Shown: positions 17,970 through 51,435 of the stretch, one piece after another
How positions within the stretch are numbered: the stretch's first letter is position 1
Layout: each line of letters starts with the position of its first letter
Assembly: GCA_005889275.1 (NCBI GenBank)
Contig: VBFI01000043.1
Coordinates: 1-63,197, forward strand
Reading direction: 5' to 3'
Length of the DNA: 63,197 nt
DNA from: Chloroflexota bacterium
GTDB lineage: Bacteria; Chloroflexota; Limnocylindria; P2-11E
The notes under the pieces: generated by a model
The model's database searches: none
Told to the model about the DNA's origin: nothing
The model's input: the letters and a program-made list of their open reading frames with translations, nothing else
Program-made: the position numbers and the translations under genes

Positions 17970-18007
17970 CCACGGTCCGCGAGACCTTTAACCTCGCGGT
18001 CGCGCTC

Positions 18008-19492: not shown

Positions 19493-19956
19493 CCACGCAC
19501 CGCGTCGCGTTCACGCTGAACGGCGCAGCGCGCGCGATCGACGTTCCCGCGGACCGCCTCCTCATCGACGCGCTTCGCGACGAACTCGGCGCGACGGGTA
19601 CGAAGCTCGGATGCGGCATCGGCGTGTGCGGCGCCTGCAGCGTGCTCGTCGACGGCGAGCTCCTCTCCGCATGCCTCCTGCCGGCCATCTTCGTCGACGG
19701 GCATGCCGTCACGACCGTCGAAGGGCTCGCCGCCGATGGCGAGCTCACCGCGACGCAGGATGCCTTCATCCGCGATGGTGGTTTCCAGTGCGGCATCTGC
19801 ACGCCGGGCCAGCTCGTCGCGGCGACCGCGCTGCTCGTCGAGCACCCCCGGCCGAGTCCCGACGAGATCCGGACGTGGATGATGGGGAATCTCTGCCGGT
19901 GCACCGGCTACTACGGCATCGAGCGCGCGATCGGCCGCGCGGCGGGGATGACGTGA
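19489..19956 (+). CDS. [2Fe-2S]-binding small subunit of a molybdenum hydroxylase (CoxS/XdhC-type)
   Basis: ATGA overlap with the ligase. CGIGVCGAC and CGICTPG...CRCTGY cluster motifs. Confidence 0.9.
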   Translation: MTTHRVAFTLNGAARAIDVPADRLLIDALRDELGATGTKLGCGIGVCGACSVLVDGELLSACLLPAIFVDGHAVTTVEGLAADGELTATQDAFIRDGGFQCGICTPGQLVAATALLVEHPRPSPDEIRTWMMGNLCRCTGYYGIERAIGRAAGMT

Positions 19957-20801: not shown

Positions 20802-21247
20802 AGTTCACGCACACCGCCACCGTCGCCGCGCCGCGCGCGAAGGTGTGGGCCCAGGTGATGGACGTCCCCGCGGCCGCGCGGTGCGTTCCGGGCGTCGCGT
20901 CGGTTCGTGCGTCGGGCAACGGCAAGTACCAGGGGACGCTCGCGGTCCAGGTTGGGCCGGTCCGCCTCGTCCTCGACGGCGACCTCGCGATCACCGCGCG
21001 CGATGAGACGGCGGGCACGGCGTCGCTTCGCGCCGAGGCAAAGGATTCGCGCGTCGGTGGCGCCATCCACGCGACGATGAACCTCGCGCTCGCCGAAAAA
21101 GGTGGCGAGACTGAGCTCCGCATCGACAGCGACCTCGCCGTGATGGGTCGCCTGGGCGAGTTCGGGCAGCCGGTCATCAAGCGGAAGGCCGACCAGCTCA
21201 TGCGCGACTTCGCCGAGTGCCTGGCGCGCCAGGCTTCCGCCCGGTGA
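20798..21247 (+). CDS. SRPBCC / CoxG-family protein
   Basis: ATGA overlap. 149 aa with the typical CoxG layout (VWAQVMD...CVPG...GEFGQPVIKRKADQLMRDF). Confidence 0.75.
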   Translation: MKFTHTATVAAPRAKVWAQVMDVPAAARCVPGVASVRASGNGKYQGTLAVQVGPVRLVLDGDLAITARDETAGTASLRAEAKDSRVGGAIHATMNLALAEKGGETELRIDSDLAVMGRLGEFGQPVIKRKADQLMRDFAECLARQASAR

Positions 21248-33441: not shown

Positions 33442-34920
33442 CTACGGCAGGTCCTTCGGCTTCTCTCCCTTGCCGACGAGCCAGCCCCAGCGCTCGAGCG
33501 CGAGACGCTTCGTCTCCGGTGTGGGAAGCTGCGAGACCGGGAAGCGATCGCGCCACTCCCACGGCCGCGTCGCGTCGATGATCGCGCGCGAGCTGAAGCC
33601 CTTCTTGTCCGGGTGGATGCGCGGATCGAGCGGGCCGCTCCACGCGCGCGGGATGATGTCGATCGATTCGGCCGGCTCGCTGCGGGTGCACATCGCCCAG
33701 AGGACCTGCTCGAGATCCATCACGTCGATGTCGTCGTCGACGACGACGGTGTAGCGACCCAGGTACGCGCCGGTATGCACGCTCGCCGCCGCGTGCCCGA
33801 CCTGCCGCGCGTGACCGGCGTACCGCTGGCTGATCGAGACCGCGTTGAAGAGACGCGAGCCGCCGACCTCGTGGCACCACACGCCGACGATGCCCGGGAT
33901 CGACGCCGCCTCGAGGTCGCCGCGCAGGCGCGCGCTCCGCATGAACGCACGGTAGAAGGACTGCTCGTCGGGCGGCACGTTCGGCGGCGAGGCGAGGATG
34001 ATCGGATCGCTGCGGTGGTAGATCGCTTCGACGCGGAACACCGGCTCCGCACGCTCGCCCGAGGCGTAGTAGCCGGTCCACTCGCCGAAGGGACCCTCGA
34101 CCTCGCGCTCCTCGGGGTCGACCCAGCCCTCCATGACGATCTCGGCATCGGCCGGGATCGGCAGCCCGGTGACCGGCCCCTTCACGACGCGATACGGCGC
34201 GCCGCGGACGCCCCCGGCCCAGTCGTACTCGGTCGTCCCGTAGGGGATCTCGGTGCAGGCGGCGAGGAAGAGGAGCGGGTCGCCGCCGGGGCAGAAGGCG
34301 AGCGGCATGCGCTCCTTGCGCGCGAACCACTTGTCGCGATGCTGCCGGCCGTGCTTGCCCGGTGAGATGTAAAAGCCAAGGCGCGTCTTGTCGTGGACCA
34401 TCACCCGATACGTCCCGAGGTTCACCCAGCCCTCGTCGGGGTCGCGGGTGATGTCGAAGCTCCCGGTGCCGAGGTAGCGTCCCCCGTCGAACTCGTGCCA
34501 CTTCGGGGCGGGGAACATGAGGCAGTTGACCTCGCTGCCGCGCAGGACGTTCTCGAACACGGGTCCGTCCTTGACGACCTCCGCCGGGATGGTGGGGATG
34601 CCCTTGCGCACGCGCTCCTGCCAGCTGCGCACGAGCTCGTGCGGCGAGGCGTTCGGGTCGAGACCGAGCGTCACCGCGATTCGTGGGAAGGAGCCGAGGC
34701 CGTTCGACAGGACGCGGAATCCCTTGCGGTAACCCTTGATCTCGTCGAAGAGCGTCGCTTTCGACGGGCGCGTGCGGCCGAGCAGTTCGGTCGCCATGCC
34801 GATGTCCTCTTCGGTGTTCGCGCCGCGTACCGTCTGAAGCTCGCCGAGCGCATCGACCCGCGTCAGCCAGTCGCGGAGGTCGGTGGGGGTGCTCACCTTT
34901 GTAGGGATCGTGGTGGTCAT
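33442..34920 (-). CDS. UbiD-family (prFMN-dependent) decarboxylase, paralog 1
   Basis: VNLGTYR, EGPFGEWTGYY and C-terminal IIDATRPW motifs. SD GGAGA 7 nt upstream. Confidence 0.85.
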   Translation of the reverse strand: MTTTIPTKVSTPTDLRDWLTRVDALGELQTVRGANTEEDIGMATELLGRTRPSKATLFDEIKGYRKGFRVLSNGLGSFPRIAVTLGLDPNASPHELVRSWQERVRKGIPTIPAEVVKDGPVFENVLRGSEVNCLMFPAPKWHEFDGGRYLGTGSFDITRDPDEGWVNLGTYRVMVHDKTRLGFYISPGKHGRQHRDKWFARKERMPLAFCPGGDPLLFLAACTEIPYGTTEYDWAGGVRGAPYRVVKGPVTGLPIPADAEIVMEGWVDPEEREVEGPFGEWTGYYASGERAEPVFRVEAIYHRSDPIILASPPNVPPDEQSFYRAFMRSARLRGDLEAASIPGIVGVWCHEVGGSRLFNAVSISQRYAGHARQVGHAAASVHTGAYLGRYTVVVDDDIDVMDLEQVLWAMCTRSEPAESIDIIPRAWSGPLDPRIHPDKKGFSSRAIIDATRPWEWRDRFPVSQLPTPETKRLALERWGWLVGKGEKPKDLP

Positions 34921-37371: not shown

Positions 37372-38133
37372 GTGTTCACTCCGATCCACCAGGCGCGCGC
37401 CTCGGGTGAGATCGTTTCCCAGATCGAGCGGGCGATCTTCGCCGAGGAGCTCTCGGCGGGCGACCGGCTCCAATCAGAGCGCGAGCTGGCCGAGCAGTTC
37501 GGCGTCTCACGCATCACCGTGCGTGACGCGCTCCGCGTCCTCGAGGCGCGCGGCCTCATCCGTGTGAAGGTCGGCGCGACCGGCGGGGCGTTCGGCGCGG
37601 ACGCGAGCACCGACCGCGTGGCCGAATCGCTCTCGACGATGATCCGACTCAAGCGCATGACCCTCTCCGAGCTCGCGGAGGCGCGGACGGTCGTCGAGGC
37701 GGCCACCGCCGCGCTCGCCGCCCAGCGCGCCAACGCCGGAGCCGTCTCGCGCCTCGCGCAGAACGCGCAGCAGGGCCGCGCGGTGATCCGCGAGAGCGTC
37801 ACCCACGCGGAGGCGAGCATGGACTTCCATGTCGAACTCGCGCGCGCGGCCGGCAACGAGGTCCTCTACGCGACGGTCGCGGCGTATCGCGAGCTGCTCG
37901 TCCCGGCGCTCCGCGATCTGCGCAACCCGAGCACGGTGAACAAGACGCAGAAGATCCACGAGGAGCTCGTCGAGGCGGTCCGCCGCCACGATGCGGAAGG
38001 GGCGCGCGAGCTGATGGTGGCGCATCTCGAGGACTTCGAGAAGCGTCTGCGCAGGCGGCTCGTGGAACGGGAAGAGGAGCGCCTTCCGACCGGCAACGTG
38101 CATCGACTCGTCCGTCCCGGAGGAAAACGCTGA
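37372..38133 (+). CDS. GntR-family transcriptional regulator, FadR subfamily (FCD ligand domain)
   Basis: wHTH LQSERELAEQFGVSRITVRDALRVLEARGLI, followed by an all-helical FCD-type domain (HVELARAAGNEVL...H). Confidence 0.9.
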   Translation: MFTPIHQARASGEIVSQIERAIFAEELSAGDRLQSERELAEQFGVSRITVRDALRVLEARGLIRVKVGATGGAFGADASTDRVAESLSTMIRLKRMTLSELAEARTVVEAATAALAAQRANAGAVSRLAQNAQQGRAVIRESVTHAEASMDFHVELARAAGNEVLYATVAAYRELLVPALRDLRNPSTVNKTQKIHEELVEAVRRHDAEGARELMVAHLEDFEKRLRRRLVEREEERLPTGNVHRLVRPGGKR

Positions 38134-39935
38134 TGGCGGTCGCAGCGAGACCCAGCCAGCGGACCGGCCGCGGCTACCCGGACCTGCGCGAGCATCTCGA
38201 GGCGCTCGACCGGGCCGGCCTGCTCGTCAGGGTCCGCCGTCCGATGCTCGCCGAGACCGAGATCCATCCGCTCGTGCGGTGGCAGTACCGCGGCGGCTTG
38301 CCGGAGGAGGACTGGAACGCGTTCCTCTTCGAGGACGTCCGGACCGTGAAGGGCGGGCGGTCTCCTTTCCGCGTCGGCGTCGGCGTGCTCGCCGCATCCA
38401 GGTACGTCTACGCGACCGGCCTCGGCTGCGCGCCTGATGAGATCGCCGCCCGGTGGGAGCGCGCGCTCGCTGAGCGCATCGCGCCGACCATCGTCGAGAC
38501 CGGGCCGGTGCACGAGGAGGTGCACATGGGCGACGCGCTCCTCGAGAAGGGCGGGACCGCGGAGTTCCCGATCCCGATCTCGACGCCCGGCTTCGACAAC
38601 GGGCCGTACACGACGTGCACGCACTGGTTCACGAAGGATCCCGAGACCGGCGTGCGCAACCAGGGCAACTACCGGGGTCAGATCAAGAGCCCGACGCGCA
38701 TCGGCATCTTCCCCTCGGGGCTCGGTCAGGACGTTTACATCCACTGGCAGAAGGCGCGCAAGAAGGGAGAGCACCTGCCGGCCGCGCTGGTGATCGGCGG
38801 CCCGCCCGTGGTCAGCTATGCGGCAGTGCAAAAGGTGCCGTACGGGATCGACGAGCTCTCGATCGCCGGCGGCCTCGCGGGCGAGCCGATCCGGCTCGTG
38901 CGTTGCAAGACCGTCCCGCTCGAGGTGCCGGCCGAGGCGGAGATCGTCTTCGAGGGGTACATCAACACGCAGGAGCTCGAGGAAGAGGGCCCCTTCGGCG
39001 AGAGCCACGGCTACATGCACCCGCGCCAGCTCAATCCCTTCTTCGAGGTCACCGCGATCACGCACCGGAAGGACGCGATCTGGGTCTCGTTCATCAGCCA
39101 GGTCACGCCCTCGGAATCGAGCGTCATCAAGAAGGTCGCCTACGAGCCGATCTTCACGCAGCATCTGCGGCAGACCTGCAACATCCGCAGCGTGAAGCGC
39201 GTCGTCATGCACGAGCCGCTCACGAACCTCCGCAAGCTCATCGTCGTGCAGATGGCGAACGGCGCGCGCGAAGCGGAGATCTGGCGCGCCTTGCGCGCCG
39301 CATCGTCGTTCAACCAGGGAGTGGGAAAGATCTGCGTGGCGGTCGACGAGGACATCGATCCGGAGGACTCGACCGCGCTCTGGTGGGCGGTCTGCTACCG
39401 ATCGCGCCCCGCGCAGGACGTCGAGATCACCGGCCATCTCGAGAAGGGCCACGCGCCGCCGTTCAAGGGCACGGGCATCGAGCAGGCCGCCGAAGGGCGC
39501 GACGTCGTGGGGCACGGCGACCCGGCGGACGACAGCGGCATGCTCATCAATGCCTGCCTCAAGGAGCCGTGGCCGCCGATCTCGCTTCCGAGCAAAGAGC
39601 ACATGGAGAACGCGCTCGAGATCTGGAACGAGCTCGGCCTGCCAAAGGTCCGCCCGCAGCGGCCCTGGTACGGCTATTCGCTCGGGCAGTGGGACGCCGA
39701 GCTCGAGGAGGAGGCTCGACTCGCCCTCCTGGGGGAGCACTTCAAGACCGGAGAGAAGATGGCGAAGCGCCGCGTGAAGCTCTCCGACACCCGCGCCGCG
39801 CGAGCCGACGCCTATCTCGGCACCGACCCGGTCCCCGGCACGCCGGTCGACCGGCGAGCCGCGGAGCAGGGTCCGGGCGGGCCCGGGTACGACGACGAGG
39901 CCCCGCGCGAAGTCCCGAACGACGACGCAGTGTGA
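38133..39935 (+). CDS. UbiD-family decarboxylase, paralog 2, with ~95-aa charged C-terminal extension
   Basis: TGATG overlap with gntR. NQGNYRGQ and EGPFGESHGYM motifs. Confidence 0.85.
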   Translation: MAVAARPSQRTGRGYPDLREHLEALDRAGLLVRVRRPMLAETEIHPLVRWQYRGGLPEEDWNAFLFEDVRTVKGGRSPFRVGVGVLAASRYVYATGLGCAPDEIAARWERALAERIAPTIVETGPVHEEVHMGDALLEKGGTAEFPIPISTPGFDNGPYTTCTHWFTKDPETGVRNQGNYRGQIKSPTRIGIFPSGLGQDVYIHWQKARKKGEHLPAALVIGGPPVVSYAAVQKVPYGIDELSIAGGLAGEPIRLVRCKTVPLEVPAEAEIVFEGYINTQELEEEGPFGESHGYMHPRQLNPFFEVTAITHRKDAIWVSFISQVTPSESSVIKKVAYEPIFTQHLRQTCNIRSVKRVVMHEPLTNLRKLIVVQMANGAREAEIWRALRAASSFNQGVGKICVAVDEDIDPEDSTALWWAVCYRSRPAQDVEITGHLEKGHAPPFKGTGIEQAAEGRDVVGHGDPADDSGMLINACLKEPWPPISLPSKEHMENALEIWNELGLPKVRPQRPWYGYSLGQWDAELEEEARLALLGEHFKTGEKMAKRRVKLSDTRAARADAYLGTDPVPGTPVDRRAAEQGPGGPGYDDEAPREVPNDDAV

Positions 39936-40012: not shown

Positions 40013-40480
40013 ATGAGCACGTCTGCGCGGCGGAGCCGCGAGATTGAGCAGGATCGGTATGCCGCGGCGAAGCAGATTCTCTCGCGGATCGCGGCGATCG
40101 CCGAGCATCCTGGTTCACGGACGACGCGGCTGATCCAGGCCTCACGAGAGTTCAGCGTTTCGCTCCTCCACGACGCGCAGCAGGACCTCGCGATGGCCGC
40201 CGGCCGCTCGGCCGAGGGCCCCGACAAGTTCGCGGCACTGGGGATCCCGGTCGCGACGCAGCCTGAGTTCAAGGCTCCGGCCGTCGACGGCAGTCTCGCG
40301 ATGCTCTGGTGCAGGGTCGTCGAGGAGCGCCCGACCGGCGATCACATCCTCTTCGTCGGCGAGATCCAGGGCGCCGTCACCAACGACCGGAAGTTCGACG
40401 CGCTCCTTCGATATCGGCGGCGCTACCTGCGCATGGGCCACTGGACCTCCGAGGAAGCTCCCGAGGGATACCCGACGTAG
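40013..40480 (+). CDS. Flavin-reductase-like domain protein, N-terminal half aberrant (possible remnant)
   Basis: The C-terminal 100 aa match flavin reductase domain landmarks (FSVSLL..DQ..LA..., PDKF, GDHILFVGEI, LLYRRRY). The first ~45 aa do not. Confidence 0.5.
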   Translation: MSTSARRSREIEQDRYAAAKQILSRIAAIAEHPGSRTTRLIQASREFSVSLLHDAQQDLAMAAGRSAEGPDKFAALGIPVATQPEFKAPAVDGSLAMLWCRVVEERPTGDHILFVGEIQGAVTNDRKFDALLRYRRRYLRMGHWTSEEAPEGYPT

Positions 40481-40482
40481 GC

Positions 40483-41058
40483 GTGCGGCGGATCGTCGTC
40501 GGGATCTCGGGTGCCTCCGGCGCGATCTACGGCATCCGCATGCTCGAGGCCCTGCAGAAGGCGAAGGACGTCGAGACCCACCTGATCGTCTCGACCGGCG
40601 CGAAGGCGACGATCGCGTATGAGACGCCGTGGCGGATGGAGAATGTTCTTGGCCTCGCCGACATCGTCCACGACGAGCGCGATCTCTCCGCGACCCTCGC
40701 GAGCGGCAGCTTTCAGACCCACGGCATGGTCGTCGCGCCGTGCTCGATCCGGACGATGTCGTCGATCGCCAACTCGTTGAACGACAACCTCATCGTGCGG
40801 GCGGCGGACGTCCACTTGAAGGAGCGCCGCACGCTCGTGCTCATGGTGCGCGAGACCCCGCTCCACGCGGGACACCTCCGCCTGATGCACGAGCTCGCGC
40901 TCACCGGTGCGGTCATCCTTCCGCCCGCTCCCGGCTTCTACCACCTGCCCAAGACGATCGAGGATCTCGTCGATCACAGCGTCGGCAAGGCGCTGGACCA
41001 GCTCGGGATCGAGCACGCGCTCTTCCGAAGGTGGAACGGAGTCGCCAAGACGGAGTGA
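40483..41058 (+). CDS. ubiX: Flavin prenyltransferase UbiX (prFMN synthase)
   Basis: RIVVGISGASGAIYG, VVAPCS..T...IA and LVLMVRETPLH motifs. GTG 2 nt after the upstream stop. Confidence 0.9.
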   Translation: MRRIVVGISGASGAIYGIRMLEALQKAKDVETHLIVSTGAKATIAYETPWRMENVLGLADIVHDERDLSATLASGSFQTHGMVVAPCSIRTMSSIANSLNDNLIVRAADVHLKERRTLVLMVRETPLHAGHLRLMHELALTGAVILPPAPGFYHLPKTIEDLVDHSVGKALDQLGIEHALFRRWNGVAKTE

Positions 41059-41877: not shown

Positions 41878-42639
41878 GTGATACTCCCCGGCGTGCCGGT
41901 CGATCAGGACGAGCGCGAGATCGAGGAGAGCCGGGAGAGCTACCGCGAGTGGCTCGCCGGCCCCGAGTCGTTCCTTGCGGCCGTCGCGCGTCATGAGCTC
42001 CCGATCGGCGAGACCCTGCGGTTCGGCGCGAACGCCGACGTCGACCTCCCCGACGCGGGCGCGCGCCTCGAGATCGCCGCGAGCGAGGATGGCTTCCGGG
42101 TCGATGGCTTTAAACGCGGCCCGGGGATCGTCCGGCTCGGCCGCTACCGCCTCCGGCTCTCGCACCAGAACGCGCCCGCCGTCGTGATCCTCGATCCGGA
42201 GGCGCCTCGACCGACGCTCGCGCCACGGTGGTACCCGTACGACGCGCGCTTTCGGCTGACGCTCTCGCTGGAGCCGGACGCGCTGCGGATCGCGCTCGGA
42301 TCGACGCGCGAGCACGATCGGTCGGCCGAGCGGGTGGGCTGGTTCGCGTTCACCCTGGAGGGCAACGCCTGCCGGCTCGCGGCCACGCGCCTCATCGAGC
42401 CGGGCGTGCCGAAGGACTCGCTCCAGCTCTTCTTCCGGGACCGCACCAGCGGCGAAACCACGTACGGCCTCGGCCGCTATCTCGATCTCGAGGACTCCGG
42501 AGATGGCCGCTACGTCGTCGACTTCAACCGCGCATACAACCCGGCATGCGCGTTTTCGCCCTACTACAACTGCCCGGTCCCTCCGGAAGAGAACCGCCTT
42601 CCGGTCATGATCACCGCGGGAGAGATGACACCCCGGTAG
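41878..42639 (+). CDS. DUF1684-family protein
   Basis: C-terminal AYNPACAFSPYYNCPVPPEENRLPVMITAGE is the signature of DUF1684. Confidence 0.7.
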   Translation: MILPGVPVDQDEREIEESRESYREWLAGPESFLAAVARHELPIGETLRFGANADVDLPDAGARLEIAASEDGFRVDGFKRGPGIVRLGRYRLRLSHQNAPAVVILDPEAPRPTLAPRWYPYDARFRLTLSLEPDALRIALGSTREHDRSAERVGWFAFTLEGNACRLAATRLIEPGVPKDSLQLFFRDRTSGETTYGLGRYLDLEDSGDGRYVVDFNRAYNPACAFSPYYNCPVPPEENRLPVMITAGEMTPR

Positions 42640-42684: not shown

Positions 42685-42999
42685 ATGGATACACGCACCC
42701 AGGAGGTCCACGTCCCGAGCGAGCACGTGGCTGTTGTCGCGATCTTCGCGGACCGCGAGGCGGCGGAAGCCGCGATCGATGCCCTCCTCGACCAGCGCTT
42801 CACCGACGATCAGATCTCGCTCGTCGCGCGCGGCGCCGGCACCGACGAGTCCGGAAAGTTCGTGCCGGGCGGGCTCATGGTGACGGTGAATGCGACGGGC
42901 CGCGAGCACGACGCCGAGCGGATCCTCACCAGCCACGAGGCCAGCGAGGTGACGACGAACCGCGTCGGCGCGACGGGAAGGGTCGGCGAGGAGACCTAG
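42685..42999 (+). CDS. Small general-stress-like protein (YflT/DUF1269-like N-terminal domain)
   Basis: VVAIFADREAAEAAIDALLDQRF..DQISLVARG motif. 104 aa. Confidence 0.45.
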   Translation: MDTRTQEVHVPSEHVAVVAIFADREAAEAAIDALLDQRFTDDQISLVARGAGTDESGKFVPGGLMVTVNATGREHDAERILTSHEASEVTTNRVGATGRVGEET

Positions 43000-43874
43000 C
43001 GGGCGGCCGCCGGCCGCAACGAGACCGCGCTGTCGATCCAGCGGGTGATGGCGTCGGCCACATCGCGTTCGTGCCCCGAATAGAGATGGTTGGCGCCGGC
43101 GATCATCGCGCCGGTGAAGCGGTCCGGGATGACCTGCCTGAGACGCTCGAGGTCGCTCTCACCACCTACCGCGGCCTCGTCGGTGCCATACATCGCAAGG
43201 ACCGGGCAGCTCGTCGTCACGAGAAGGCCGGAGGGATCGCCAACGAGGGAGCGCGAAAGGATTGTCGCCGCGCTGAGCCGCCCGAACGTGAGTCCCGCGG
43301 TTCCGAGATCGACGAGCTCCTGTGGCCGACCGGCGTTCACGGCTTCACGGGCCCTCGCCAAGAGATCCTCGCCGGGCCGGGCGGCGAAGCCTCGGAGCGG
43401 CGGAGAGGCGAGGATCAGCCCGACGAGCTCGCGGTCGGGTCGGGCGCTCGTGTAGAGGAGCGCCTTCACGGCGCCGAGACTGTGCCCGAGCAGCACGATG
43501 CGCCTCGCGCCGGATGCGAGCGCGAGATCGATCCAGGCGTCGAGATCCTCGGCGGCGTCCTCGAGTCGTTCGAACCAGGCGCCGCCGAGGCGCACACCAT
43601 CGCGGGTCGGCAACGGAGTCGCGAGGCCCGACCCACGATTGTTGCCGGCGATGACCGTGTATCCAGCCGCACCGAGTTCGCGCCCGACCCGCACGTGCCC
43701 CTGCCGGAACACGGAGCTTCGGACCCCATGCATGTAGACGATCGCGAGATCGCTCGGCGGCGGCCCATGCCGGACGCCCTCGAGCAGCAGTCCGTCGGAG
43801 GTGTACGCGTGGAGCAGCTCTTCCGTCACCGAGTCCGGCAACGCTACTCCGCCGGACCGCGGGCCCCCGCGCAT
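42996..43874 (-). CDS. Alpha/beta-fold hydrolase
   Basis: Nucleophile elbow GHSLGA. ATG 43874 is chosen because the longer tracked ORF would run through operator E and into the SBP-4 gene. Confidence 0.7.
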   Translation of the reverse strand: MRGGPRSGGVALPDSVTEELLHAYTSDGLLLEGVRHGPPPSDLAIVYMHGVRSSVFRQGHVRVGRELGAAGYTVIAGNNRGSGLATPLPTRDGVRLGGAWFERLEDAAEDLDAWIDLALASGARRIVLLGHSLGAVKALLYTSARPDRELVGLILASPPLRGFAARPGEDLLARAREAVNAGRPQELVDLGTAGLTFGRLSAATILSRSLVGDPSGLLVTTSCPVLAMYGTDEAAVGGESDLERLRQVIPDRFTGAMIAGANHLYSGHERDVADAITRWIDSAVSLRPAAAR

Positions 43875-44031
43875 CGCGTCGATCACCGCCTGCGCGAGGA
43901 TCCAACCCCACTTCTTGCGTGTCTCGCGCTTGGTCTCGGCGTCGGGGCCGATCGCGATCGAAGACGAGCGGCTCGACGCCGCAGACGACCGCTCGCGGAG
44001 GTCTCCGCATTCTCCGCCGCGTCGGTGGTCA

Positions 44032-44046
44032 AATGGTCTTACCATT
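44032..44046. promoter_or_regulatory. Operator E: AATGGTCTTACCATT (perfect palindrome)
   Basis: Lies 34 nt upstream of the SBP-4 ATG, at the head of the SBP4-UbiD3-CoA-transferase-fni operon. Confidence 0.75.
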
Positions 44047-44079
44047 CTTGCGGAGCAACGGTTCGTGGGAGGTGTGGCC

Positions 44080-45102
44080 ATGCGTCGAGCGCTCGGTGCC
44101 GGTCTCGCTCTGGTCGTGCTGGCCGCCGCCTGTGGGGGCACCGGCCAGGTCTCGACGCCGAGCGCGTCCGCGGGTGGCACGCTCGCGCCGCCGCCGGCCG
44201 TCCACCTCGAGGTCAGCTACAGCAACGTCATCGGGGACGAGCTGCCGCTCTGGGCCACGAAGGAGGGCGGCTTCTTCGACAAGAACGGTCTTGACGTGAA
44301 CCTCTCCAACATCGCGAGCGCGCAGGGCGTGCCGGCGGTGATCGCCGGGCAGGTCACCTTCGCCCAGGTCGGCGGGTCCGAGGTCCTCTCAGCGAACGCG
44401 GGAGGCGCCGATCTCGTCGTCGTCGCGCAGCTCGCCGGCGTGTATCCCTTCGTGCTCGAGGTCGCGGCCGACATCAAGACCGTCGCCGACCTGAAGGGCA
44501 AGAAGATCGGGGTGTCGACCGTGGGCTCGTCCTCCGACATCGCGACGCGGGTGGCGCTCAAGAAGATGGGGCTCGATCCTGAGAAGGACGTGAGCATCCT
44601 GGCGGTCGGCTCCGCGGCGAACCGCGTCGCGGCGCTCTTCGCCGGATCCATCCAGGGTGGCGTCTCCCAGCCGCCGGACTCGCTCGACCTCGAGGCGAAG
44701 GGTTTCCATGTCCTCTACGACCTCGCCTCGCAGAAGCTGCCGTCGGCGAACACGTCGGTGGCCGTTCGGCGCTCGTACATCGCGCAGAACAAGGACGTCG
44801 TCCAGCGCTACGTCGACTCGATCGTCCTCGGGATCAAGAAGCTGAAGTCCGACAAGGCCTTCGGGATCTCGGTCCTGAAGAAGTACTTCAACTCGACCGA
44901 CGATGCGAAGATGGGCGTGACCTACGACTTCTACGCGCTGAGCGTCGCGCCGGTACAGCCGTTCGCGAAGCTCGAGATGTACACCGATTCGCAGGTCACG
45001 CTCGGCGCGACGAACGCTGCCGTGAAGAGCTACGACTTGAGCAAGATGCTCGACTCGACCTTCGTTCAGAGTTCGATCGACCGCAACCTCGACAAGAACT
45101 GA
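44080..45102 (+). CDS. ABC substrate-binding lipoprotein, NMT1/SsuA-like (SBP-4)
   Basis: SD GGGAGGTG. Lipobox LAAAC. DLKGKKIGVSTVGSSSD. Close paralog of SBP-2. Confidence 0.85.
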   Translation: MRRALGAGLALVVLAAACGGTGQVSTPSASAGGTLAPPPAVHLEVSYSNVIGDELPLWATKEGGFFDKNGLDVNLSNIASAQGVPAVIAGQVTFAQVGGSEVLSANAGGADLVVVAQLAGVYPFVLEVAADIKTVADLKGKKIGVSTVGSSSDIATRVALKKMGLDPEKDVSILAVGSAANRVAALFAGSIQGGVSQPPDSLDLEAKGFHVLYDLASQKLPSANTSVAVRRSYIAQNKDVVQRYVDSIVLGIKKLKSDKAFGISVLKKYFNSTDDAKMGVTYDFYALSVAPVQPFAKLEMYTDSQVTLGATNAAVKSYDLSKMLDSTFVQSSIDRNLDKN

Positions 45103-45116: not shown

Positions 45117-46742
45117 ATGGCAACGGCGCAAGCGGACGTCCGGCGGAAGGCGGCAAAGACCCCGCTCCGCGATCCGAGGGAGGCGCCTCGAGCGCCGCAG
45201 GAGGCCCTTCGCTCGCTCCCGAAGACGATCGAGTGGCTGCGCCGTGAGGGCCTGCTCATGGAGACGGACACCCCGGTATCGGGAGACCTCGAGCTCACCG
45301 GCATCCAGAAGCACTTCGATGGGAGCTATCCCATCCTCTTCAACAATGTGAAGGGCTACCCGAACGTGCGGGCGATCACGAACTTCTTCGCGAACATGGA
45401 CATCGTCGATCGCCTCTTCGGATGGCAGGACCGCACCGCCCGCACACGCGAGCTCGCGCACGCGCTCACGCACCCGATCCCGAGCGAGGTCGTCTCGCAG
45501 GAGGAGGCGCCCTGTCAGCAGGAGGTCATCACCGACGACCTCGACGTGAACAAGTACATCCTGCCGATCCGGCATACCCACCTCGAGTCGGAGATCACGA
45601 TCGGCTCCGGCAACAGCGTCGTCGTCGGCGACAAGTTCTGGGGCGGCAGCCACATCGGCTACAACCGCATGAACTTCCGCTGGGGCAACATCGGCACCTT
45701 CCAGATCTCGCCCGGCTCGCACATGTGGCAGGTCATGACGAAGTACTACAAGGACGAGCCGGTCCCGCTCACGGTTTGCTTTGGACTCCCCGCGGCGGCG
45801 ACGCTGCTCGCGGGCGGCGGCTTCGACTATGTCGTGCTCCCGCGCGGCGGCGACGAGCTCGGCGCGGCCGGCGCGGTGCAGGGGTTCCCGATGCGCCTCG
45901 TGAAGGCTCGCACCGTCGACGCGTACGCGGTCGCCGACTGCGAGTACGTGCTCGAGGGCTACCTCCATCCCCGCGACAAGCGGTATGAGACGAAAGAGGC
46001 CGAGGAGCACGACACCCAGGGGCGCTACCACTTCCACCCGGAATGGGCCGGCTACATGGGCAAGGCGTACAAGGCGCCGACCTTCCACGTCAGCGCGATC
46101 ACGATGCGCCGGCGCTCGGATCGCCCGTTCATCTACCCGATGGGCGTGCACATGTACGACTGCAACAACATCGACACGACCGTGCGCGAGGCGGCATTCT
46201 TCGAGTTGTGTGAAAGGATTCAGCCGGGGCTGATCCAGGACGTCAACATCCCGTTCCCGATGACCGACTGGGCCGGCGCGATCCTGCAGGTGCGCAAGCG
46301 CCTCAAGACCGACGACGGCTTCACGAGAAACTTCCTCGCCGCGGCGATGGCCTGCAGCTCGGGCATGCGCCTCTGCATCGCGGTCGACAGCGACGTCGAC
46401 ATCTACTCGATGGACGACATCATCTGGGCGCTCACGACGCGGGTGAACCCGCGCGACGACATCCTGAATCCGGTGCCAGGGGGCGCGGGACAGACGTTCA
46501 TCCCGTCGGAACGGCTCACCGCGGGTGGCGCGCAGTGGACCGCGATGAACACGCGGTTCGAAGGCGGCATGGCGATCGACGCGACCGTTCCGTACGGGTT
46601 CGAGAACGACTTCATGCGGCCGGTCTATCCGATCGACCGGGTGGACCCCTCAGGTTGGTTCGACGAGGACCAGATCACGAAGGGCAAGGCGGCCATGAAG
46701 ACGTCGTCGTGGGCGGAGGTCCTCGCGCGCACCGGCCGCTAA
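45117..46742 (+). CDS. UbiD-family decarboxylase, paralog 3 (divergent active-site region)
   Basis: Overall UbiD architecture (NNVKGYP, IGYNRMNF, HPEWAGYMG in place of EGPFGE.TGY, C-terminal AIDATVPY). Confidence 0.75.
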   Translation: MATAQADVRRKAAKTPLRDPREAPRAPQEALRSLPKTIEWLRREGLLMETDTPVSGDLELTGIQKHFDGSYPILFNNVKGYPNVRAITNFFANMDIVDRLFGWQDRTARTRELAHALTHPIPSEVVSQEEAPCQQEVITDDLDVNKYILPIRHTHLESEITIGSGNSVVVGDKFWGGSHIGYNRMNFRWGNIGTFQISPGSHMWQVMTKYYKDEPVPLTVCFGLPAAATLLAGGGFDYVVLPRGGDELGAAGAVQGFPMRLVKARTVDAYAVADCEYVLEGYLHPRDKRYETKEAEEHDTQGRYHFHPEWAGYMGKAYKAPTFHVSAITMRRRSDRPFIYPMGVHMYDCNNIDTTVREAAFFELCERIQPGLIQDVNIPFPMTDWAGAILQVRKRLKTDDGFTRNFLAAAMACSSGMRLCIAVDSDVDIYSMDDIIWALTTRVNPRDDILNPVPGGAGQTFIPSERLTAGGAQWTAMNTRFEGGMAIDATVPYGFENDFMRPVYPIDRVDPSGWFDEDQITKGKAAMKTSSWAEVLARTGR

Positions 46743-46752
46743 CCGCGCGGTA

Positions 46753-48987
46753 GTGCTCGACGGGATTCGCGTCCTCGACCTCGGCGACGATTCCGGCGCG
46801 CACTGCGCGCGGATCCTCGCCGAGCTTGGGGCCGAGGTCAGGCGATCGCGCGACCCCACACGTGCCGCCTCGGCCGACGTCGTCGTCCAGACCGAGGATC
46901 GTCTCCACTACGACAGGCTCGCGACGGCGAACCCGCGCACGATCCTCGTCACCATCACGCCCTACGGCACGACGGGACCGCTCGCCGGCGTGCCCGCGTC
47001 GGATCTCGAGGTCACCGCGGCGAGCGGGTGCCTCTGGCTCGCGGGGGAGCCCGGCCGCACTCCCGTTCGGACCACCCTTCCGCAGTCGCCGTACTGGACC
47101 GGCATGTACGCGGCTCTCGGCGCGCTCGCCGCCCTGGCGGCGCGCGAGCGGAGCGGACGGGGGCAGCACGTCGACGTCTCGGCCCAGGCCGCCATGGCGA
47201 CCGTGCACCCACCGGCCATCGTGTTCTGGGAGACCTTGCGCGAGGAGCATCGCCGCCTCGGCCCCTATCTCATCGGACGGAGTGTCGTCGGCGCCAAGTT
47301 CCGCAACATCTGGCCCTGCGCTGACGGGTATCTCGCGTTCGCGATCCAGGGCGGTCCGATCGGCCGCCACACCGGTCGGATGCTCGCCGATTGGATGCGC
47401 GAGAAAGACGCCGTCGATCCGGTCATCGGCGCGATCGATTGGGAGCGATTCGACAATCGAACGCTCACGCAGGACGAGGTCGACCGCCTCGAGTCGGCCG
47501 TCGGAGCGTTTCTCGCCACGCTCACGAAGCGCGAGTTCTTCGCGGGGGTGATCGCGCGGAACATGCTCGGGTATCCGGTCGCCGACGTCCGCGACATCTT
47601 CGCCGACGAGCAGCTCGGCTCTCGCCGGTTCTGGCAGGAGGTCGTGCACGAGGGCCGCACCCTTCGCGTGCCGGGCGGGTTCGCCCTCTTCGACGGCGAG
47701 CGGCCACGCACGGCTCACCTGAAGCCAGACGCGGTGGCCGGCGAGGACTGGAGCGACGCGACGCGACCAAAGAGCGCGGAGCTCTTGGCGGAGGAAAGCC
47801 CCAACCGAGCGGTGTCGTCAGCCTTGAGCGGCCTCCGAGTCATCGAGTTCGGGTGGGCGGCGGCGGGACCGCTCGTCGGAAAATACCTGGCGAATCTCGG
47901 CGCCGAAGTGATCCACGTCGAAAGCGGCACCGTGCTCGATCCGTTTCGATCGACCTACCCGCCGTTCAAGGGCGAGCCCGCCCCCAACACGGCCGCGATG
48001 TTCGCGTTCTACGACGACGGCAAGAAGGGCGTCACCCTCAACCTGAAGCATCCCCGTGCGGCCGAGCTCGCGCTTCGGCTCATCGCCAAGGCGGACGTGG
48101 TGATCGAAAGCTTTCCCGCGGGGACGCTCGCCCGGCGCGGCCTCACGGTCGACGCGATGCGCGCGGCAAAGCGGGACCTCGTCATCCTCTCGAGCTGCAA
48201 CCAGGGACAGACCGGCCCGCACGCGCAGCATCCCGGGTACGGCAGCCAGCTCACCGCGCTCGCGGGCTTCAACGAGCTGCTCGGCGAGCGCGGTCGGACC
48301 CCGGTCATCCTGTACGGGCCGTACATCGACTACATCGCCGTCGGCTACGGCGTCATCGCCATCCTCGCGGCCCTCCAGCGGCGGCGCCGCGACGGCGACG
48401 GCTGCGTCATCGACCTCTCCCAGTACGAGGCCGGGTTGCAGTTCATGGCGCCGGCCCTCCTCGAGCACGCGCGCGATGGGTCCGTCCCCACACGGGACGG
48501 CAACCGGGACGCCGTCGCGCGTCCGCACGGCGTCTACCGGTGCGCGGGCGACGACCGCTGGGTCGCGCTCAGCATCTGGGACGAGGATGAGTTCGCGCGT
48601 CTCCGGTCGCTCGCGGGACACTTCGAATGGTCGCGCGCCGATCCCGACCTCGACGCCTGCATCGAGCAATGGACCGGCGTGCGGTCGCGCGAGGAGATCG
48701 TCGAGGCGCTTCGCGAGGAACGTCTGCGGGTCGCGCCCGTGGTCACCATCTCCGAGCTCGCCGCCGATCCCCAGCTCGCGGCGCGCAGGTTCTGGCGCCG
48801 CACGAGCCATCCCGTGCTCGGCGCACTGACCGTCATGGCGCCGCCGTTCATCCTTTCGCGAACCCCGGCCGTCCTGGAGCGCGCGGGGCCGACGCTCGGG
48901 GAACACAACGGCGAGGTGTGGCAGGGGCTTCTCGGCCTCGGCGACACCGAGTACCGTGCCCTCGCGTCGGAGGGGGTGTTCGACTGA
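46753..48987 (+). CDS. Fused tandem family III CoA-transferase (CaiB/BaiF/Frc type), two domains in one 744-aa chain
   Basis: Two repeats of the GxRVxxxG...LAxLGAEV Rossmann start (residues ~4 and ~360). Each is followed by a ...AALAAL/ILAAL helix and a C-terminal small domain. Confidence 0.8.
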   Translation: MLDGIRVLDLGDDSGAHCARILAELGAEVRRSRDPTRAASADVVVQTEDRLHYDRLATANPRTILVTITPYGTTGPLAGVPASDLEVTAASGCLWLAGEPGRTPVRTTLPQSPYWTGMYAALGALAALAARERSGRGQHVDVSAQAAMATVHPPAIVFWETLREEHRRLGPYLIGRSVVGAKFRNIWPCADGYLAFAIQGGPIGRHTGRMLADWMREKDAVDPVIGAIDWERFDNRTLTQDEVDRLESAVGAFLATLTKREFFAGVIARNMLGYPVADVRDIFADEQLGSRRFWQEVVHEGRTLRVPGGFALFDGERPRTAHLKPDAVAGEDWSDATRPKSAELLAEESPNRAVSSALSGLRVIEFGWAAAGPLVGKYLANLGAEVIHVESGTVLDPFRSTYPPFKGEPAPNTAAMFAFYDDGKKGVTLNLKHPRAAELALRLIAKADVVIESFPAGTLARRGLTVDAMRAAKRDLVILSSCNQGQTGPHAQHPGYGSQLTALAGFNELLGERGRTPVILYGPYIDYIAVGYGVIAILAALQRRRRDGDGCVIDLSQYEAGLQFMAPALLEHARDGSVPTRDGNRDAVARPHGVYRCAGDDRWVALSIWDEDEFARLRSLAGHFEWSRADPDLDACIEQWTGVRSREEIVEALREERLRVAPVVTISELAADPQLAARRFWRRTSHPVLGALTVMAPPFILSRTPAVLERAGPTLGEHNGEVWQGLLGLGDTEYRALASEGVFD

Positions 48988-50105
48988 GCGAAGCGGAGGA
49001 CATCGCGCGGCGGAAGGGGGAGCACCTGAAGCTCGCCGCCGAGGCGGACGTCGAGACGAGGACCCCGGCGGGATGGGACGACGTGCAGATCGTCCACGAC
49101 GCGCTGCCGGATCTTGACGCGACGGACGTCGACCTCGGTACCAGCTTCCTCGGGCGGAAGCTCGCGTTGCCGCTCGTCATCTCGGGCATGACCGGTGGGC
49201 ACGGGCGCGCGCTCGCCGTGAACGAGCTCCTCGCGCGGGTCGCCGAGAAGCACGGCATCGCGATGGGCGTCGGGAGCCAGCGCGCGGCGATCCGGGACCC
49301 GCTGCTCGCGCCGACCTACTCGGTCGTCCGAGAGGCGGCACCACACGCCTTCGTGATCGCGAACGTCGGGATCTCGCAGCTCGTGAAGCAGGACCGCGAG
49401 GCGGCACTCGGAGCGCGCGACATCGCCCAGATCGTCTCCATGGTCCGCGCCGACGCGCTCGCGGTACACCTCAACTACCTCGAAGAGTCGGTGCAGCCCG
49501 AGGGGCAGACGCGGGCGCGGGGCGCGCTTGCCGCGATCGCGGCGCTCGCGCGCCGATCGCGCGTGCCGATCATCGCGAAGGAGACCGGGGCCGGGATCAC
49601 GCGCGAGGTGGCCCTGCGCCTGCGGCGTGCGGGTGTGAAAGCGATCGACGTCGGCGGGGTCGGCGGGACCTCGTTCGCCGCGATCGAAGCGCTGCGGGCC
49701 GCGGCGCAGTCCGAGACCGCGCGCATGACTCTCGGCAACCGGTTCCGCGACTGGGGTGTGCCGACGGCGGTCGCCGTCGCCGGCGTCGCGACCGTCGGAC
49801 TGCCGGTGATCGCGACCGGCGGTGTTCGGAGCGGCCTCGACGCGGCGAAGGCGCTCGCGCTCGGAGCGACGCTTGTCGGGGTCGGCCGGCCGCTGCTCCA
49901 GGCCGCGCTCCGCGGCGAGGAGGCGGTCGACCAATGGATCGCCGAGTTCGAGCTCGAGCTCCGGACGGCGGTATTTCTGTCAGGAGCCCGGCGCGTGGGA
50001 GAGCTTCGCCGCGCCGCGATCGTGATCACCGGAGCGTCGAAGCAATGGATCGACCAGCTCGGCTATCGGCGAGTCGGCGTTCGCGCTTCCCCGACCCGCC
50101 GCTGA
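48984..50105 (+). CDS. fni: Type 2 (FMN-dependent) isopentenyl-diphosphate delta-isomerase; probable CTG start
   Basis: RKGEHL near the N-terminus, SGMTGG, GVGSQRA, IAKETGAG, VGGVGGTSFAAIE, ATGGVRSGLDAAKALALGA. GGAGGGGG SD 7 nt upstream of CTG 48984, which overlaps the upstream TGA. Confidence 0.8.
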   Translation: MSEAEDIARRKGEHLKLAAEADVETRTPAGWDDVQIVHDALPDLDATDVDLGTSFLGRKLALPLVISGMTGGHGRALAVNELLARVAEKHGIAMGVGSQRAAIRDPLLAPTYSVVREAAPHAFVIANVGISQLVKQDREAALGARDIAQIVSMVRADALAVHLNYLEESVQPEGQTRARGALAAIAALARRSRVPIIAKETGAGITREVALRLRRAGVKAIDVGGVGGTSFAAIEALRAAAQSETARMTLGNRFRDWGVPTAVAVAGVATVGLPVIATGGVRSGLDAAKALALGATLVGVGRPLLQAALRGEEAVDQWIAEFELELRTAVFLSGARRVGELRRAAIVITGASKQWIDQLGYRRVGVRASPTRR

Positions 50106-50178: not shown

Positions 50179-51435
50179 TTGCGGAGACGTGCTGTCTACA
50201 CGACGCTGCTGGCGATCGGGCTCATGGTCCTGCCCTCCCACGCGGCCAGCGCGGATGACGATCGCCCGACCCCGACGCCGAAGCCCACCCCGACGCCCGG
50301 TCCCGGGCTGACCACCGCGCAGACACCCGCGCCGATCCCCACGCCGGCACCGCGCTCCTCCGCGACGGCGGCCCCCACGCCGACGGCCACGGCGTCGCCC
50401 TCGCCGACCGGCGATCCGGCGAGCTCCGATCCGGCGGAGGCACGCGCACGCGACGCGGCGCTCCTCGCGAACGCGCGGACGCTCGCTCAGGTCATCGACG
50501 CGCAGGCCCGTGTGGCACAGGACGAGCTCGTCGCGCTCGGCCACGAGGTGACCCAGGTGTCCTCGGACCTCGACGGGGTGAACGCGGACATCGCCGATCT
50601 CGCGGCGCGCTCAGCCGAGCGCCGCGCCCTGCAGGATCGGCTCGCGCGTGATGCCTTCCGGCTGAACGCACGCTCGCCGAGCCCGGCGCCTGCCGCGATC
50701 AGCCAGGCGCAGAGCGAGGCCCTGGACGATCTGCGCGCGCTCGAGGCGGGGCTGGGCTCCGCGCAGGCGCGACTCGAGGATCGGGCGACGACGCTCGCCC
50801 GGCTCACCGAGTCGGTCGGTGCGAAGCAGGGACAGCTGGCGCGTCTTCGCGATCGCGCGCGCGTGCTCGCCGCCGCAGCGGCGAACGGCGACGGCGACGC
50901 ACGCGCCGCGCAGGTCGCCGTGCTCCGCGCGCTCGCTCAGGACGCCGCGGCCGCGCAGACGTCCCTCGCGCAGCTCGTCGCGTCGGCGATGACGAGCGAC
51001 GGCTTGTCGACGACGTCGTGGTCCTTGCCGATGCGCGGGCCGATCACCCAGCCGTTCGGTCCGAGCGCGCTCGAGCTCGAGCCGGCCCGGATCTATCGGG
51101 GAACCTTCTACGAGCACTTCCACGACGCGATCGACATCGCGGCGTCGCTGGGCACGCCGGTCATGGCTGCCGCGGATGGCCAGGTCACGTTCGTCGGTCA
51201 CCTGCCTGACGGCGCGATGATCGTCCTCGTCGCGCATGCCGGCGGCTTCGTGACGGAGTACGCGCACCTTGACGACACCTTCGTCCTGCCGCCCGTCCGC
51301 GCGGGGCAGAACGTGAAGGCCGGCCAGGTCATCGGATTCGTCGGGCTTACCGGCATCACCACCGGCCCGCACGTGCACTTCGCGGTGCTGCGAAGTGGCG
51401 AGCCGGTGGACCCACTGTCGCTCATCGGCCGGTAG
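50179..51435 (+). CDS. M23-family metallopeptidase with N-terminal signal, Pro/Thr-rich linker and coiled-coil (EnvC-like)
   Basis: HDAIDI...GFVGLTGITTGPHVHF M23 zinc motifs. TTG start. Confidence 0.8.
   Translation: MRRRAVYTTLLAIGLMVLPSHAASADDDRPTPTPKPTPTPGPGLTTAQTPAPIPTPAPRSSATAAPTPTATASPSPTGDPASSDPAEARARDAALLANARTLAQVIDAQARVAQDELVALGHEVTQVSSDLDGVNADIADLAARSAERRALQDRLARDAFRLNARSPSPAPAAISQAQSEALDDLRALEAGLGSAQARLEDRATTLARLTESVGAKQGQLARLRDRARVLAAAAANGDGDARAAQVAVLRALAQDAAAAQTSLAQLVASAMTSDGLSTTSWSLPMRGPITQPFGPSALELEPARIYRGTFYEHFHDAIDIAASLGTPVMAAADGQVTFVGHLPDGAMIVLVAHAGGFVTEYAHLDDTFVLPPVRAGQNVKAGQVIGFVGLTGITTGPHVHFAVLRSGEPVDPLSLIGR

Follow-up and report, generated by a model that had tools for sequence, protein, structure and literature searches.

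Phthalates are mass-produced components of plasticisers, and o-phthalate is a breakdown product of plasticisers. To our knowledge, the CoA-dependent route from phthalate to benzoyl-CoA has been studied in just a handful of denitrifiers and sulfate reducers. In Aromatoleum aromaticum EbN1, the genes lie on plasmid 2 in the order ubiX, phthaloyl-CoA decarboxylase (PCD), CoA-transferase 1 and CoA-transferase 2; the background of the succinyl-CoA:phthalate CoA-transferase (SPT)/PCD pathway and the specificity of the characterised enzymes are described elsewhere (PMC13040137), and the name SptAB is that of PMC11659651. Another two-subunit system is BbsEF, the succinyl-CoA:(R)-benzylsuccinate CoA-transferase (PDB 9fn0, 9fol, 9fun). 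Our remarks on the structures of BbsEF (9FN0/9FOL/9FUN) and of PCD (8OZ5/8P02/8PMK) rest on the PDB titles and on our own alignments. Among the 12 literature matches listed of 7,335 loose ones, none concerned phthaloyl-CoA in Chloroflexota or used the term phthaloyl-CoA. Here we analysed a window of 63,197 nucleotides, meaning the whole stretch of DNA under study, from an uncultured Limnocylindria-like soil Chloroflexota. Comparison of its genes with those of EbN1 suggests that the locus is probably a module for the activation and decarboxylation of o-phthalate. The pathway is a known one, and the architecture is a new variant with a single unusual feature, namely that the CoA-transferase subunits are fused and the naturally inactive half has shrunk further.

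Results

The decarboxylase gene

45117..46742, forward strand: phthaloyl-CoA decarboxylase (PCD) orthologue of the prFMN-dependent UbiD family ("UbiD-3"), 541 aa

The reading frame is open, with a GC3 of 0.92 and a bias as in real genes, and it contains the UbiD_N, UbiD and UbiD_C domains (Pfam). Over residues 32-541 its product matches the PDB entries 8pmk/8oz5, "Phthaloyl-CoA decarboxylase" (E 1e-239, 800 bits), and it is 64% identical to the PCD of EbN1. The initial annotation had labelled this protein a divergent UbiD with a diverged catalytic loop. The motif HPEWAGYMG is indeed present, but the active-site loop bearing the catalytic Glu, HFHPEWAGYMGKAYKAPTFHV, has the same letters in 8pmk/8oz5 and in EbN1 PCD and aligns with the AroY loop MPEFPGYCGE; the motif is a conserved PCD signature and the label was abandoned. 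In a tree of 76 sequences, UbiD-3 falls within the PCD clade of EbN1 and Desulfosarcina cetonica (support 98), while a Syntrophorhabdus clade, the free-acid UbiDs and the UbiD-1 and UbiD-2 of the window stay outside; the phylogenetic comparison that had been proposed thus groups it with characterised PCDs and away from decarboxylases of the isophthaloyl-CoA type and of free acids. By homology and phylogeny, UbiD-3 is a clear PCD orthologue, and there is good reason to predict, as part of a single judgement on the whole module, that it decarboxylates phthaloyl-CoA to benzoyl-CoA. The logic of anaerobic phthalate degradation recognised earlier holds, but the substrate, which had been left as unknown, is most likely o-phthalate because UbiD-3 is a clear PCD orthologue.

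The fused CoA-transferase

46753-48987, forward strand: fused CoA-transferase ORF, 744 aa, with no stop between the halves
46753..47715, forward strand: N-half, residues 1-321, putative SptA/BbsE-type pseudo-subunit lacking the Asp (from PDB match and EbN1 identity)
46840..46878, forward strand: deletion site in the Rossmann region of the N-half, residues 30-42, RRSRDPTRAASAD (from alignments)
47722..47805, forward strand: inter-half linker, residues 324-351 (from low conservation and predicted disorder)
47815..48987, forward strand: C-half, residues 355-744, putative SptB/BbsF-type catalytic subunit (from PDB match and EbN1 identity)

This frame is likewise open (GC3 0.89, bias as in real genes), and the two family III repeats first noticed in its 744-aa product correspond to two CoA_transf_3 (PF02515) stretches (Pfam, whole-protein E 4e-134), both halves matching family III structures. 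The best PDB match of the N-half is 9fn0_A, chain A of BbsEF (E 4e-29), and the C-half matches 9fn0_B (E 1e-58). The N-half is 43% identical to EbN1 CoA-transferase 1 (P0123, motif PQSYCW) and the C-half 46% identical to CoA-transferase 2 (P0124). As the characterised SptA and SptB are no closer than this, we only infer, from these identities and from synteny, that succinyl-CoA would be the donor and o-phthalate the acceptor. Within the same overall judgement, the 744-aa protein is in all probability a gene fusion of the two SPT subunits (SptA-SptB).

The catalytic Asp attributed to the C-terminal repeat is Asp526 (codon 48328-48330), which occupies the nucleophile column where the long central helix begins, aligns with YGPYIDFIA of SptB and is conserved in 68/68 fused relatives. 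Its counterpart in BbsF is D178; this residue appears in the title of PDB 9fol ("D178-CoA adduct") and by our count on the BbsF alignment belongs to the B-type chain. The Pro assigned to the corresponding position of the N-half (codon 47089-47091) is Pro113, and it fills the catalytic-Asp column when the protein is aligned with solved structures or with SptA/SptB of EbN1. Among the 68 fused relatives this column holds P, Y, G, S, A, H, Q or R, with Asp in a single sequence (P0064) and never Glu; BbsE has Tyr, and the A-type motif PQ[SA]xxW carries Asp or Glu in 0/53 readable PCD-linked A-type subunits. Proper alignment thus places neither an Asp nor a Glu nucleophile in the N-half of our protein and leaves its second half in family III, which supports the suggestion that the N-half is catalytically dead. 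We considered that fusion had caused the loss of the Asp and rejected this, as split A-type subunits also lack it. Because the A-type partner of two-subunit enzymes is without Asp too, the Asp-less half would be inherited from an SptA/BbsE-type subunit, and the A-type nucleophile had probably, again as part of the joint reading, already gone in the ancestor shared with BbsE. The N-half nevertheless appears to be still needed, because its mean identity to relatives is about that of the C-half (57.4% vs 58.7%) and many of its residues are invariant.

The structure prediction that had been proposed yielded one compact unit (AlphaFold, mean pLDDT 92.3, pTM 0.94) with disorder only in the linker, where pLDDT is <50 at residues 324-331 and 335-351; the same region is variable and gap-rich in the alignment (columns 400-490). 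The best structural matches of the model are BbsF (TM 0.92) and BbsE (TM 0.86). These scores indicate a defined assembly of two halves, the threading of an interlocked ring being a feature that scores do not display. Together with the conserved D526 and an N-half column with Asp in one of 68 fused relatives and never Glu, they support the earlier view that the chain is a pseudo-heterodimer of covalently joined halves, only one of which carries a catalytic Asp, as far as sequence and model can tell, and a single active site would follow from it.

The initial annotation had further reported that about 50 residues are missing after LAELGAEV, and alignment and spacing agree on about 40-55. The segment RRSRDPTRAASAD stands in place of ~50-55 residues, among them the N-x-N-K-R motif and a single beta-strand, and residues 35-51 cover the counterpart of BbsE residues 38-109. 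Only 44 residues separate LGAxV from TPYG, vs 83 in EbN1 SptA and 83-99 in most relatives, and V29 and T69 lie 40 residues apart, vs a median of 80 among the 68 fused relatives. In the AlphaFold model the stretch from strand 2 to strand 4 holds fewer secondary-structure elements in the N-half than in the C-half. The deletion is real, since NCBI, ENA and JGI together provide 13 sequences of ≥99% identity, every one of them 744 aa long; by sequence comparison, this loss of ~40 extra residues from the N-half Rossmann region is specific to the species.

Genes for uptake and cofactor supply

40309..41058, forward strand: UbiX-type flavin prenyltransferase (Pfam Flavoprotein PF02441, E 8e-43, ORF residues 61-231)
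44080..45102, forward strand: NMT1/SsuA-type ABC substrate-binding protein, candidate uptake component (Pfam NMT1, NMT1_2)
49008..50105, forward strand: type 2 (FMN-dependent) isopentenyl-diphosphate isomerase (NCBIfam TIGR02151)

The UbiX-type domain begins near 40489, and no other gene of its type was seen where the window was surveyed. The genome has three UbiD homologues, each of them inside the window, and this UbiX presumably serves all three paralogues, PCD included. The frame of the binding protein is open from 43801; its 340-aa start was taken from the gene call on an independent contig (L092), where a 340-aa gene lies directly upstream of the PCD gene. The protein scores under the cut-off of the NCBIfam SsuA_fam model, and its candidacy as an orthologue of the ABC binding protein linked to PCD in EbN1 was set aside as weak (24% identity, E 8e-4). 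This weak likeness counts against the module reading. The isomerase matches TIGR02151 with 376 bits against a cut-off of 281.3, from residue 128 of ORF 48627-50105, with an uncertain start between 48984 and 49083; it is likely the source of the prenyl donor for prFMN synthesis.

Occurrence of PCD loci and of the fusion

A-type and B-type genes both occur at about 56/80 PCD loci, mostly directly downstream of PCD. The fused A-B form was found at 12 of these about 56 loci, in several phyla, and hundreds of metagenome and database proteins of 780-830 aa are fused forms, which are common in metagenomes. Close relatives of the same class (L007-L010) have split transferase genes, and an independent ENA contig encodes an identical 744-aa protein among the same neighbouring genes. 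Uncultured soil phyla carry the module widely, and fusion of the two transferase subunits into a single chain has happened at least two or three times.

Discussion

From homology, synteny, residue conservation and a compact predicted fold we propose the following scheme, in which the substrate, the CoA donor, the single-site mechanism and the part played by the isomerase are our predictions. A binding-protein-dependent transporter would take up the acid, and the 744-aa enzyme would move CoA from succinyl-CoA to o-phthalate at one active site, formed by the C-half (its large domain, with Asp526 and the CoA-binding Rossmann fold) and by the small domain of the N-half. The labile phthaloyl-CoA would immediately be decarboxylated to benzoyl-CoA by the prFMN-dependent PCD encoded directly upstream of the transferase. 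The prenylated flavin would come from UbiX, encoded 4 kb upstream, and from the type-2 IPP isomerase, whose gene follows directly downstream. The N-half would have a structural role in completing the interlocked dimer, and in this species its presumably unused CoA-binding region has lost a further ~40 residues.

The fate of benzoyl-CoA deserves separate mention. In this ~91%-complete genome the canonical benzoyl-CoA route was not found, with sub-threshold matches only for BoxB, BoxC and Oah and no match for BcrB, a result that counts against reading the locus as a benzoyl-CoA module.

It could be argued that both enzymes have some other ortho-dicarboxylate as their substrate, such as a substituted or a natural phthalate-like acid, and yield another aryl-CoA in place of benzoyl-CoA. 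Such a substrate would fit a genome with no recognised benzoyl-CoA dearomatising enzymes and the 43-46% identity to the characterised transferase subunits, as well as the deep divergence of the PCD clade across many phyla, which is hard to square with an industrial substrate less than a century old. We nonetheless regard it as unlikely: UbiD-3 has 64% identity and an identical loop to phthaloyl-CoA-specific PCDs, its clade is bracketed by the characterised PCDs of EbN1 and D. cetonica, which come from two distant phyla, the genome is ~9% incomplete, and the window also encodes BoxB/PaaA-like di-iron proteins and a member of the benzoate-CoA ligase family.

Two further objections concern the transferase itself. 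The N-half might be alive, through another acidic residue or as a second CoA site with a regulatory or catalytic role, given that it is conserved as well as the C-half, keeps an invariant S-D-L-E motif (D84) and has a fused relative, P0064, with Asp at the nucleophile column. But that relative is just 1 of 68, Glu never appears there and the 53 A-type subunits have neither; D84 corresponds to the G-Y-D motif found generally in family III and not to the nucleophile, the Rossmann segment with N-x-N-K-R is deleted, and the D178-CoA adduct of 9fol falls in the B-type chain, in line with D526, so that we consider an active N-half very improbable. The chance is slighter still that the 744-aa frame is an assembly or sequencing artefact joining two ordinary genes, for example because a stop codon was lost or a region collapsed. 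The source MAG is fragmented (235 contigs) and the close relatives L007-L010 have split genes, but the thirteen near-identical sequences from NCBI, ENA and JGI all have 744 aa, the independent ENA contig repeats both protein and context, and fused forms recur at 12 loci in several phyla and in hundreds of 780-830-aa database proteins; we rejected the artefact on the independent assemblies.

If the o-phthalate module is as we propose, an Asp-less partner subunit tolerates the loss of much of its CoA-binding fold, which would be natural evidence that one active site is enough for the enzyme. For engineering pathways of phthalate or plastic-waste valorisation, a single-chain SPT may also be a simpler part. 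More speculatively, and with rather little probability, the phthaloyl-CoA route of the abundant aerobic soil Limnocylindria would not belong to an anaerobic way of life but be an ancient module that predates industrial phthalates, takes a natural ortho-dicarboxylate and passes its aryl-CoA product to an undescribed route. Since no canonical enzyme for dearomatising benzoyl-CoA was recognised in the genome, two distant BoxB/PaaA-like di-iron proteins encoded next to a benzoate-CoA ligase (15921-19492) may be candidates for that route. Were this true, the fused single-site transferase with its shrinking pseudo-subunit would be a streamlined form that evolved repeatedly.

Comparison with known systems

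The locus refines a known system and leaves current understanding in place. The PCD of the sulfate reducer D. cetonica falls in the same clade as UbiD-3, but there phthalate is activated by an ATP-dependent phthalate CoA ligase and not by a CoA-transferase, and no CoA-transferase gene lies beside its PCD gene (L055). The SptAB/PCD system of EbN1 is closer: the order is again PCD, then A-type, then B-type transferase, the A-type is without Asp and the B-type has it, and ubiX and an IPP isomerase (idi) lie nearby. The transferase is, however, made of two polypeptides in EbN1 and of one here, where the A-type half lacks about 40-55 Rossmann residues and the C-terminal helix; the isomerase is of type 2 here and of type 1 in EbN1, UbiX presumably serves two other UbiD paralogues besides PCD, unlike that of EbN1, and the hosts are an oxygen-respiring Chloroflexota bacterium on one side and a denitrifying betaproteobacterium on the other.

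BbsEF is the best match in both sequence and structure, the N-half pairing with chain A and the C-half with chain B, and it shows the same asymmetry, with catalytic D178 in one subunit type and Tyr at that column in the other. It differs in having separate subunits with full-length Rossmann folds, at ~30-32% identity, and in its substrate and operon (the bbs operon of anaerobic toluene degradation). With the homodimeric family III enzymes Frc, YfdW, CaiB and SUGCT, the C-half has in common the fold and the nucleophilic Asp that opens the long helix; these enzymes consist of two identical subunits with two active sites, whereas in the 744-aa protein one site appears to have been abolished and the halves are covalently linked.

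Results

Two open reading frames, both with the GC3 bias typical of real genes in a window of about 70% G+C, encode UbiD-3 (P0001, 541 aa), in which Pfam detects all three UbiD domains, and a tandem CoA-transferase (P0002, 744 aa) with two CoA_transf_3 stretches (E 4e-134 for the whole protein). The host genome is a metagenome-assembled genome (MAG) of 2.78 Mb in 235 contigs, about 91% complete, and the window contains every one of its three UbiD homologues. UbiD-2 is the first gene of a GntR-controlled operon that also comprises the flavin-reductase-like gene, UbiX and the class II aldolase. The closest relatives of the locus are found in Candidatus Limnocylindria and other Chloroflexota MAGs.

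Genes surrounding UbiD-3 and the tandem CoA-transferase
33442-34920, minus strand: UbiD-1 paralogue (closest models phenylphosphate carboxylase beta and VdcC, below cut-off)
37372-38133: GntR/FCD regulator
38133-39935, plus strand: UbiD-2, 600 aa
40013-40480: flavin-reductase-like gene
40309-41058: UbiX
ending at 41774: class II aldolase
41878-42639: DUF1684 protein
42996-44180, minus strand: alpha/beta hydrolase
about 44080-45102: NMT1/SsuA-type binding protein
45117-46742: UbiD-3 (P0001)
46753-48987: tandem CoA-transferase (P0002)
about 49008-50105: type 2 IPP isomerase (TIGR02151, 376 bits against a cut-off of 281)
50179-51435: M23 peptidase

UbiD-3 can be predicted with confidence to be a phthaloyl-CoA decarboxylase (PCD). 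Over residues 32-541 it matches the "Phthaloyl-CoA decarboxylase" chains of PDB entries 8pmk and 8oz5 with an E-value of 1e-239, the runner-up structures, AroY-type decarboxylases, reaching only 1e-42, and it shares 64% identity with the PCD encoded on plasmid 2 of Aromatoleum aromaticum EbN1. The initial annotation had described a divergent UbiD of unknown substrate with a diverged catalytic loop; the loop, HFHPEWAGYMGKAYKAPTFHV, is made of the same residues in the 8pmk and 8oz5 chains and is therefore not diverged, and the PCD assignment supersedes the rest of that description. Since HFHPEWAGYMGKAYKAPTFHV aligns with the AroY loop MPEFPGYCGE, the catalytic Glu is kept. The phylogenetic comparison proposed at that stage gave a concordant placement: in a tree of 76 sequences, UbiD-3 falls within the clade containing the PCDs of EbN1 and Desulfosarcina cetonica, both of which are described as phthalate degraders using this enzyme (PMC13040137), and UbiD-1 and UbiD-2 are distant outgroups.

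A Syntrophorhabdus/deltaproteobacterial clade is split from this PCD clade with full support, the Syntrophorhabdus group standing apart on a long branch. Among the 80 genome loci encoding PCD relatives (L001-L080), orthologues with 60-90% identity are distributed over MAGs of Chloroflexota, Acidobacteriota, Dormibacterota, Alpha- and Gammaproteobacteria, Acidimicrobiia and SAR324, a range that goes far beyond the small number of cultured phthalate degraders in both breadth and depth. No family III CoA-transferase lies near the PCD relatives of L055, L072-L074 and L076, which belong to D. cetonica, Syntrophorhabdus and other deltaproteobacterial MAGs, and this is consistent with a ligase-type activation.

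On EbN1 plasmid 2 the gene order is ubiX, PCD and two CoA-transferase genes (395 aa, P0123; 406 aa, P0124), which encode SptA and SptB, the A- and B-type subunits of succinyl-CoA:phthalate CoA-transferase. P0002 shares 43% identity with P0123 in its N-half and 46% with P0124 in its C-half; the best-matching solved structures for the two halves are, respectively, chain A (9fn0_A, E 4e-29) and chain B (9fn0_B, E 1e-58) of BbsEF, the succinyl-CoA:(R)-benzylsuccinate CoA-transferase. By these matches P0002 is SptA fused to SptB. A- and B-type units are both present at about 56 of the 80 loci, mostly directly 3' of the PCD gene, and in 12 of these about 56 loci (L001-L006, the closest relatives, and L025, L036, L045, L048, L050 and L051) they form one uninterrupted frame, the others being split. 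The hosts of the 12 are Chloroflexota, Gamma- and Alphaproteobacteria and Acidimicrobiia, and about three changes are needed to explain the fused state on the PCD tree, of which well-supported branches force at least two. The fused arrangement is a recurrent variant of this architecture. A database search with P0002 returned 1865 matches at E <= 0.001; the 120 matches listed are mostly single-chain proteins of ~765-850 aa that align over the whole query and carry no annotation beyond "CoA transferase" or "CaiB-like", and we found no description of the fused architecture in the literature searched.

As first noted, the N-half is short in its Rossmann region: the spacing from LGAxV to TPYGxxGP is 44 residues in P0002 against 83 in EbN1 SptA; most relatives have 83-99 and the closest fused proteins 67-87. 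Likewise, the interval V29-T69 spans 40 residues, the median of 68 fused proteins being 80 and the next-shortest 62. The alignments show that an N-x-N-K-R motif and a strand-helix unit are absent, and the predicted model has fewer elements between strands 2 and 4 in the N-half than in the C-half. In the Limnocylindria fused clade the A-type unit has also lost its C-terminal helix segment ("LGEH..."), a linker taking its place. The extra Rossmann deletion is species-specific. The 744-aa form belongs to a sequence cluster of 21 members; 14 further listed members, from NCBI, ENA and JGI, measure 744 aa in 13 cases and 727 aa in one, identity to P0002 is at least 99% in the twelve 744-aa members that were aligned with it, and a separate ENA contig carries the same form in the same gene context. 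This near-identity across repositories, together with the independent contig, rules out an artefact. One metagenome protein (P0004, 778 aa) is a mosaic, 99.5-100% identical to P0002 from about residue 200 on, with only 57-68% identity in its first 100 residues and the longer Rossmann segment kept; either recent recombination at the N-half or a chimeric read assembly would produce it.

Discussion

The initial annotation had read P0002 as a covalently fused pseudo-heterodimer whose N-half has lost its nucleophile; the alignments confirm the observation and support the mechanistic reading. Asp526 (codon 48328-48330) aligns, by counting on the alignment, with D178 of BbsF, named as the D178-CoA adduct in the title of PDB entry 9fol, and with the Asp of YGPYIDFIA in EbN1 SptB, and it is invariant in 68/68 fused relatives. 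The corresponding N-half residue is Pro113 (47089-47091; ORF arithmetic returns both codon positions as originally given), and the column holds Tyr in EbN1 SptA (PQSYCW) and in BbsE. All 53 readable PCD-linked A-type units, fused or split, carry PQ[SA]xxW and have no Asp or Glu there, which rules out the dead N-half as a novelty of P0002; the Asp-less half is an ancestral trait of SptA/BbsE-type subunits that was inherited. In the fused set of 68, this position is occupied by P (34), Y (13), G (8), S (4), A (4), H (2), Q (1), R (1) and D (1). The single Asp bearer, P0064 (813 aa, PQADSW), may either have regained a second active site or owe this Asp to the way the sequences align locally.

The N-half and the C-half share on average 57.4% and 58.7% identity with relatives, and the N-half holds many invariant residues. 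This conservation is in keeping with a partner needed for the structure, not with a remnant in decay. The AlphaFold2 model of P0002, built on the 68-sequence alignment, has a mean pLDDT of 92.3 and a whole-chain pTM of 0.94, falling below 50 in pLDDT only in the linker (residues 324-331 and 335-351). The top Foldseek match was BbsF (rmsd 1.9, TM on target 0.92), followed closely by BbsE (TM on target 0.86), each spanning about half of P0002 (TMq about 0.5). The model thus supports an intramolecular pseudo-heterodimer with putative ring interlocking. In family III enzymes such as Frc and CaiB, each active site is formed where the large domain of one subunit meets the small domain of its partner, so that the single active site of P0002 would be built from the large domain of the C-half and the small domain of the N-half.

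As for the fate of benzoyl-CoA, no canonical dearomatising enzyme was found in the ~91%-complete genome (BoxB, BoxC and Oah far below threshold, BcrB without any match). This speaks for a physiological substrate of the module other than o-phthalate, an explanation to which we give a low probability beside the confident PCD assignment. Other genes of the window may be relevant to the fate of the UbiD-3 product. The window encodes a benzoate-CoA ligase family protein (TIGR02262, 616 bits), adjoined by two distant BoxB/PaaA-like di-iron proteins (15921-19492; 435 and 240 aa; best PDB matches BoxB 3per and PaaA, E 1e-9 to 1e-19), which are possible candidates for a non-canonical aryl-CoA epoxidase. 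Directly after the ligase gene comes a Mo-hydroxylase set (19417-23442), which may likewise be relevant and comprises CoxG, a MoCo subunit of 741 aa and a 2Fe-2S gamma subunit with an additional resemblance to 4-hydroxybenzoyl-CoA reductase gamma.

PCD needs prFMN, and a UbiX gene lies 4 kb upstream of the PCD gene. Between 48940 and 49100 there is no obvious canonical start for the type 2 IPP isomerase after the transferase stop (TGA, 48985-48987); the conserved N-terminus RRKGEHL is encoded from about 49008, which leaves the initiation codon uncertain. This isomerase gene directly follows the transferase, and we infer that its product supplies the prenyl donor for prFMN. The EbN1 cluster, too, contains an idi gene, which there lies beside ubiX-PCD.
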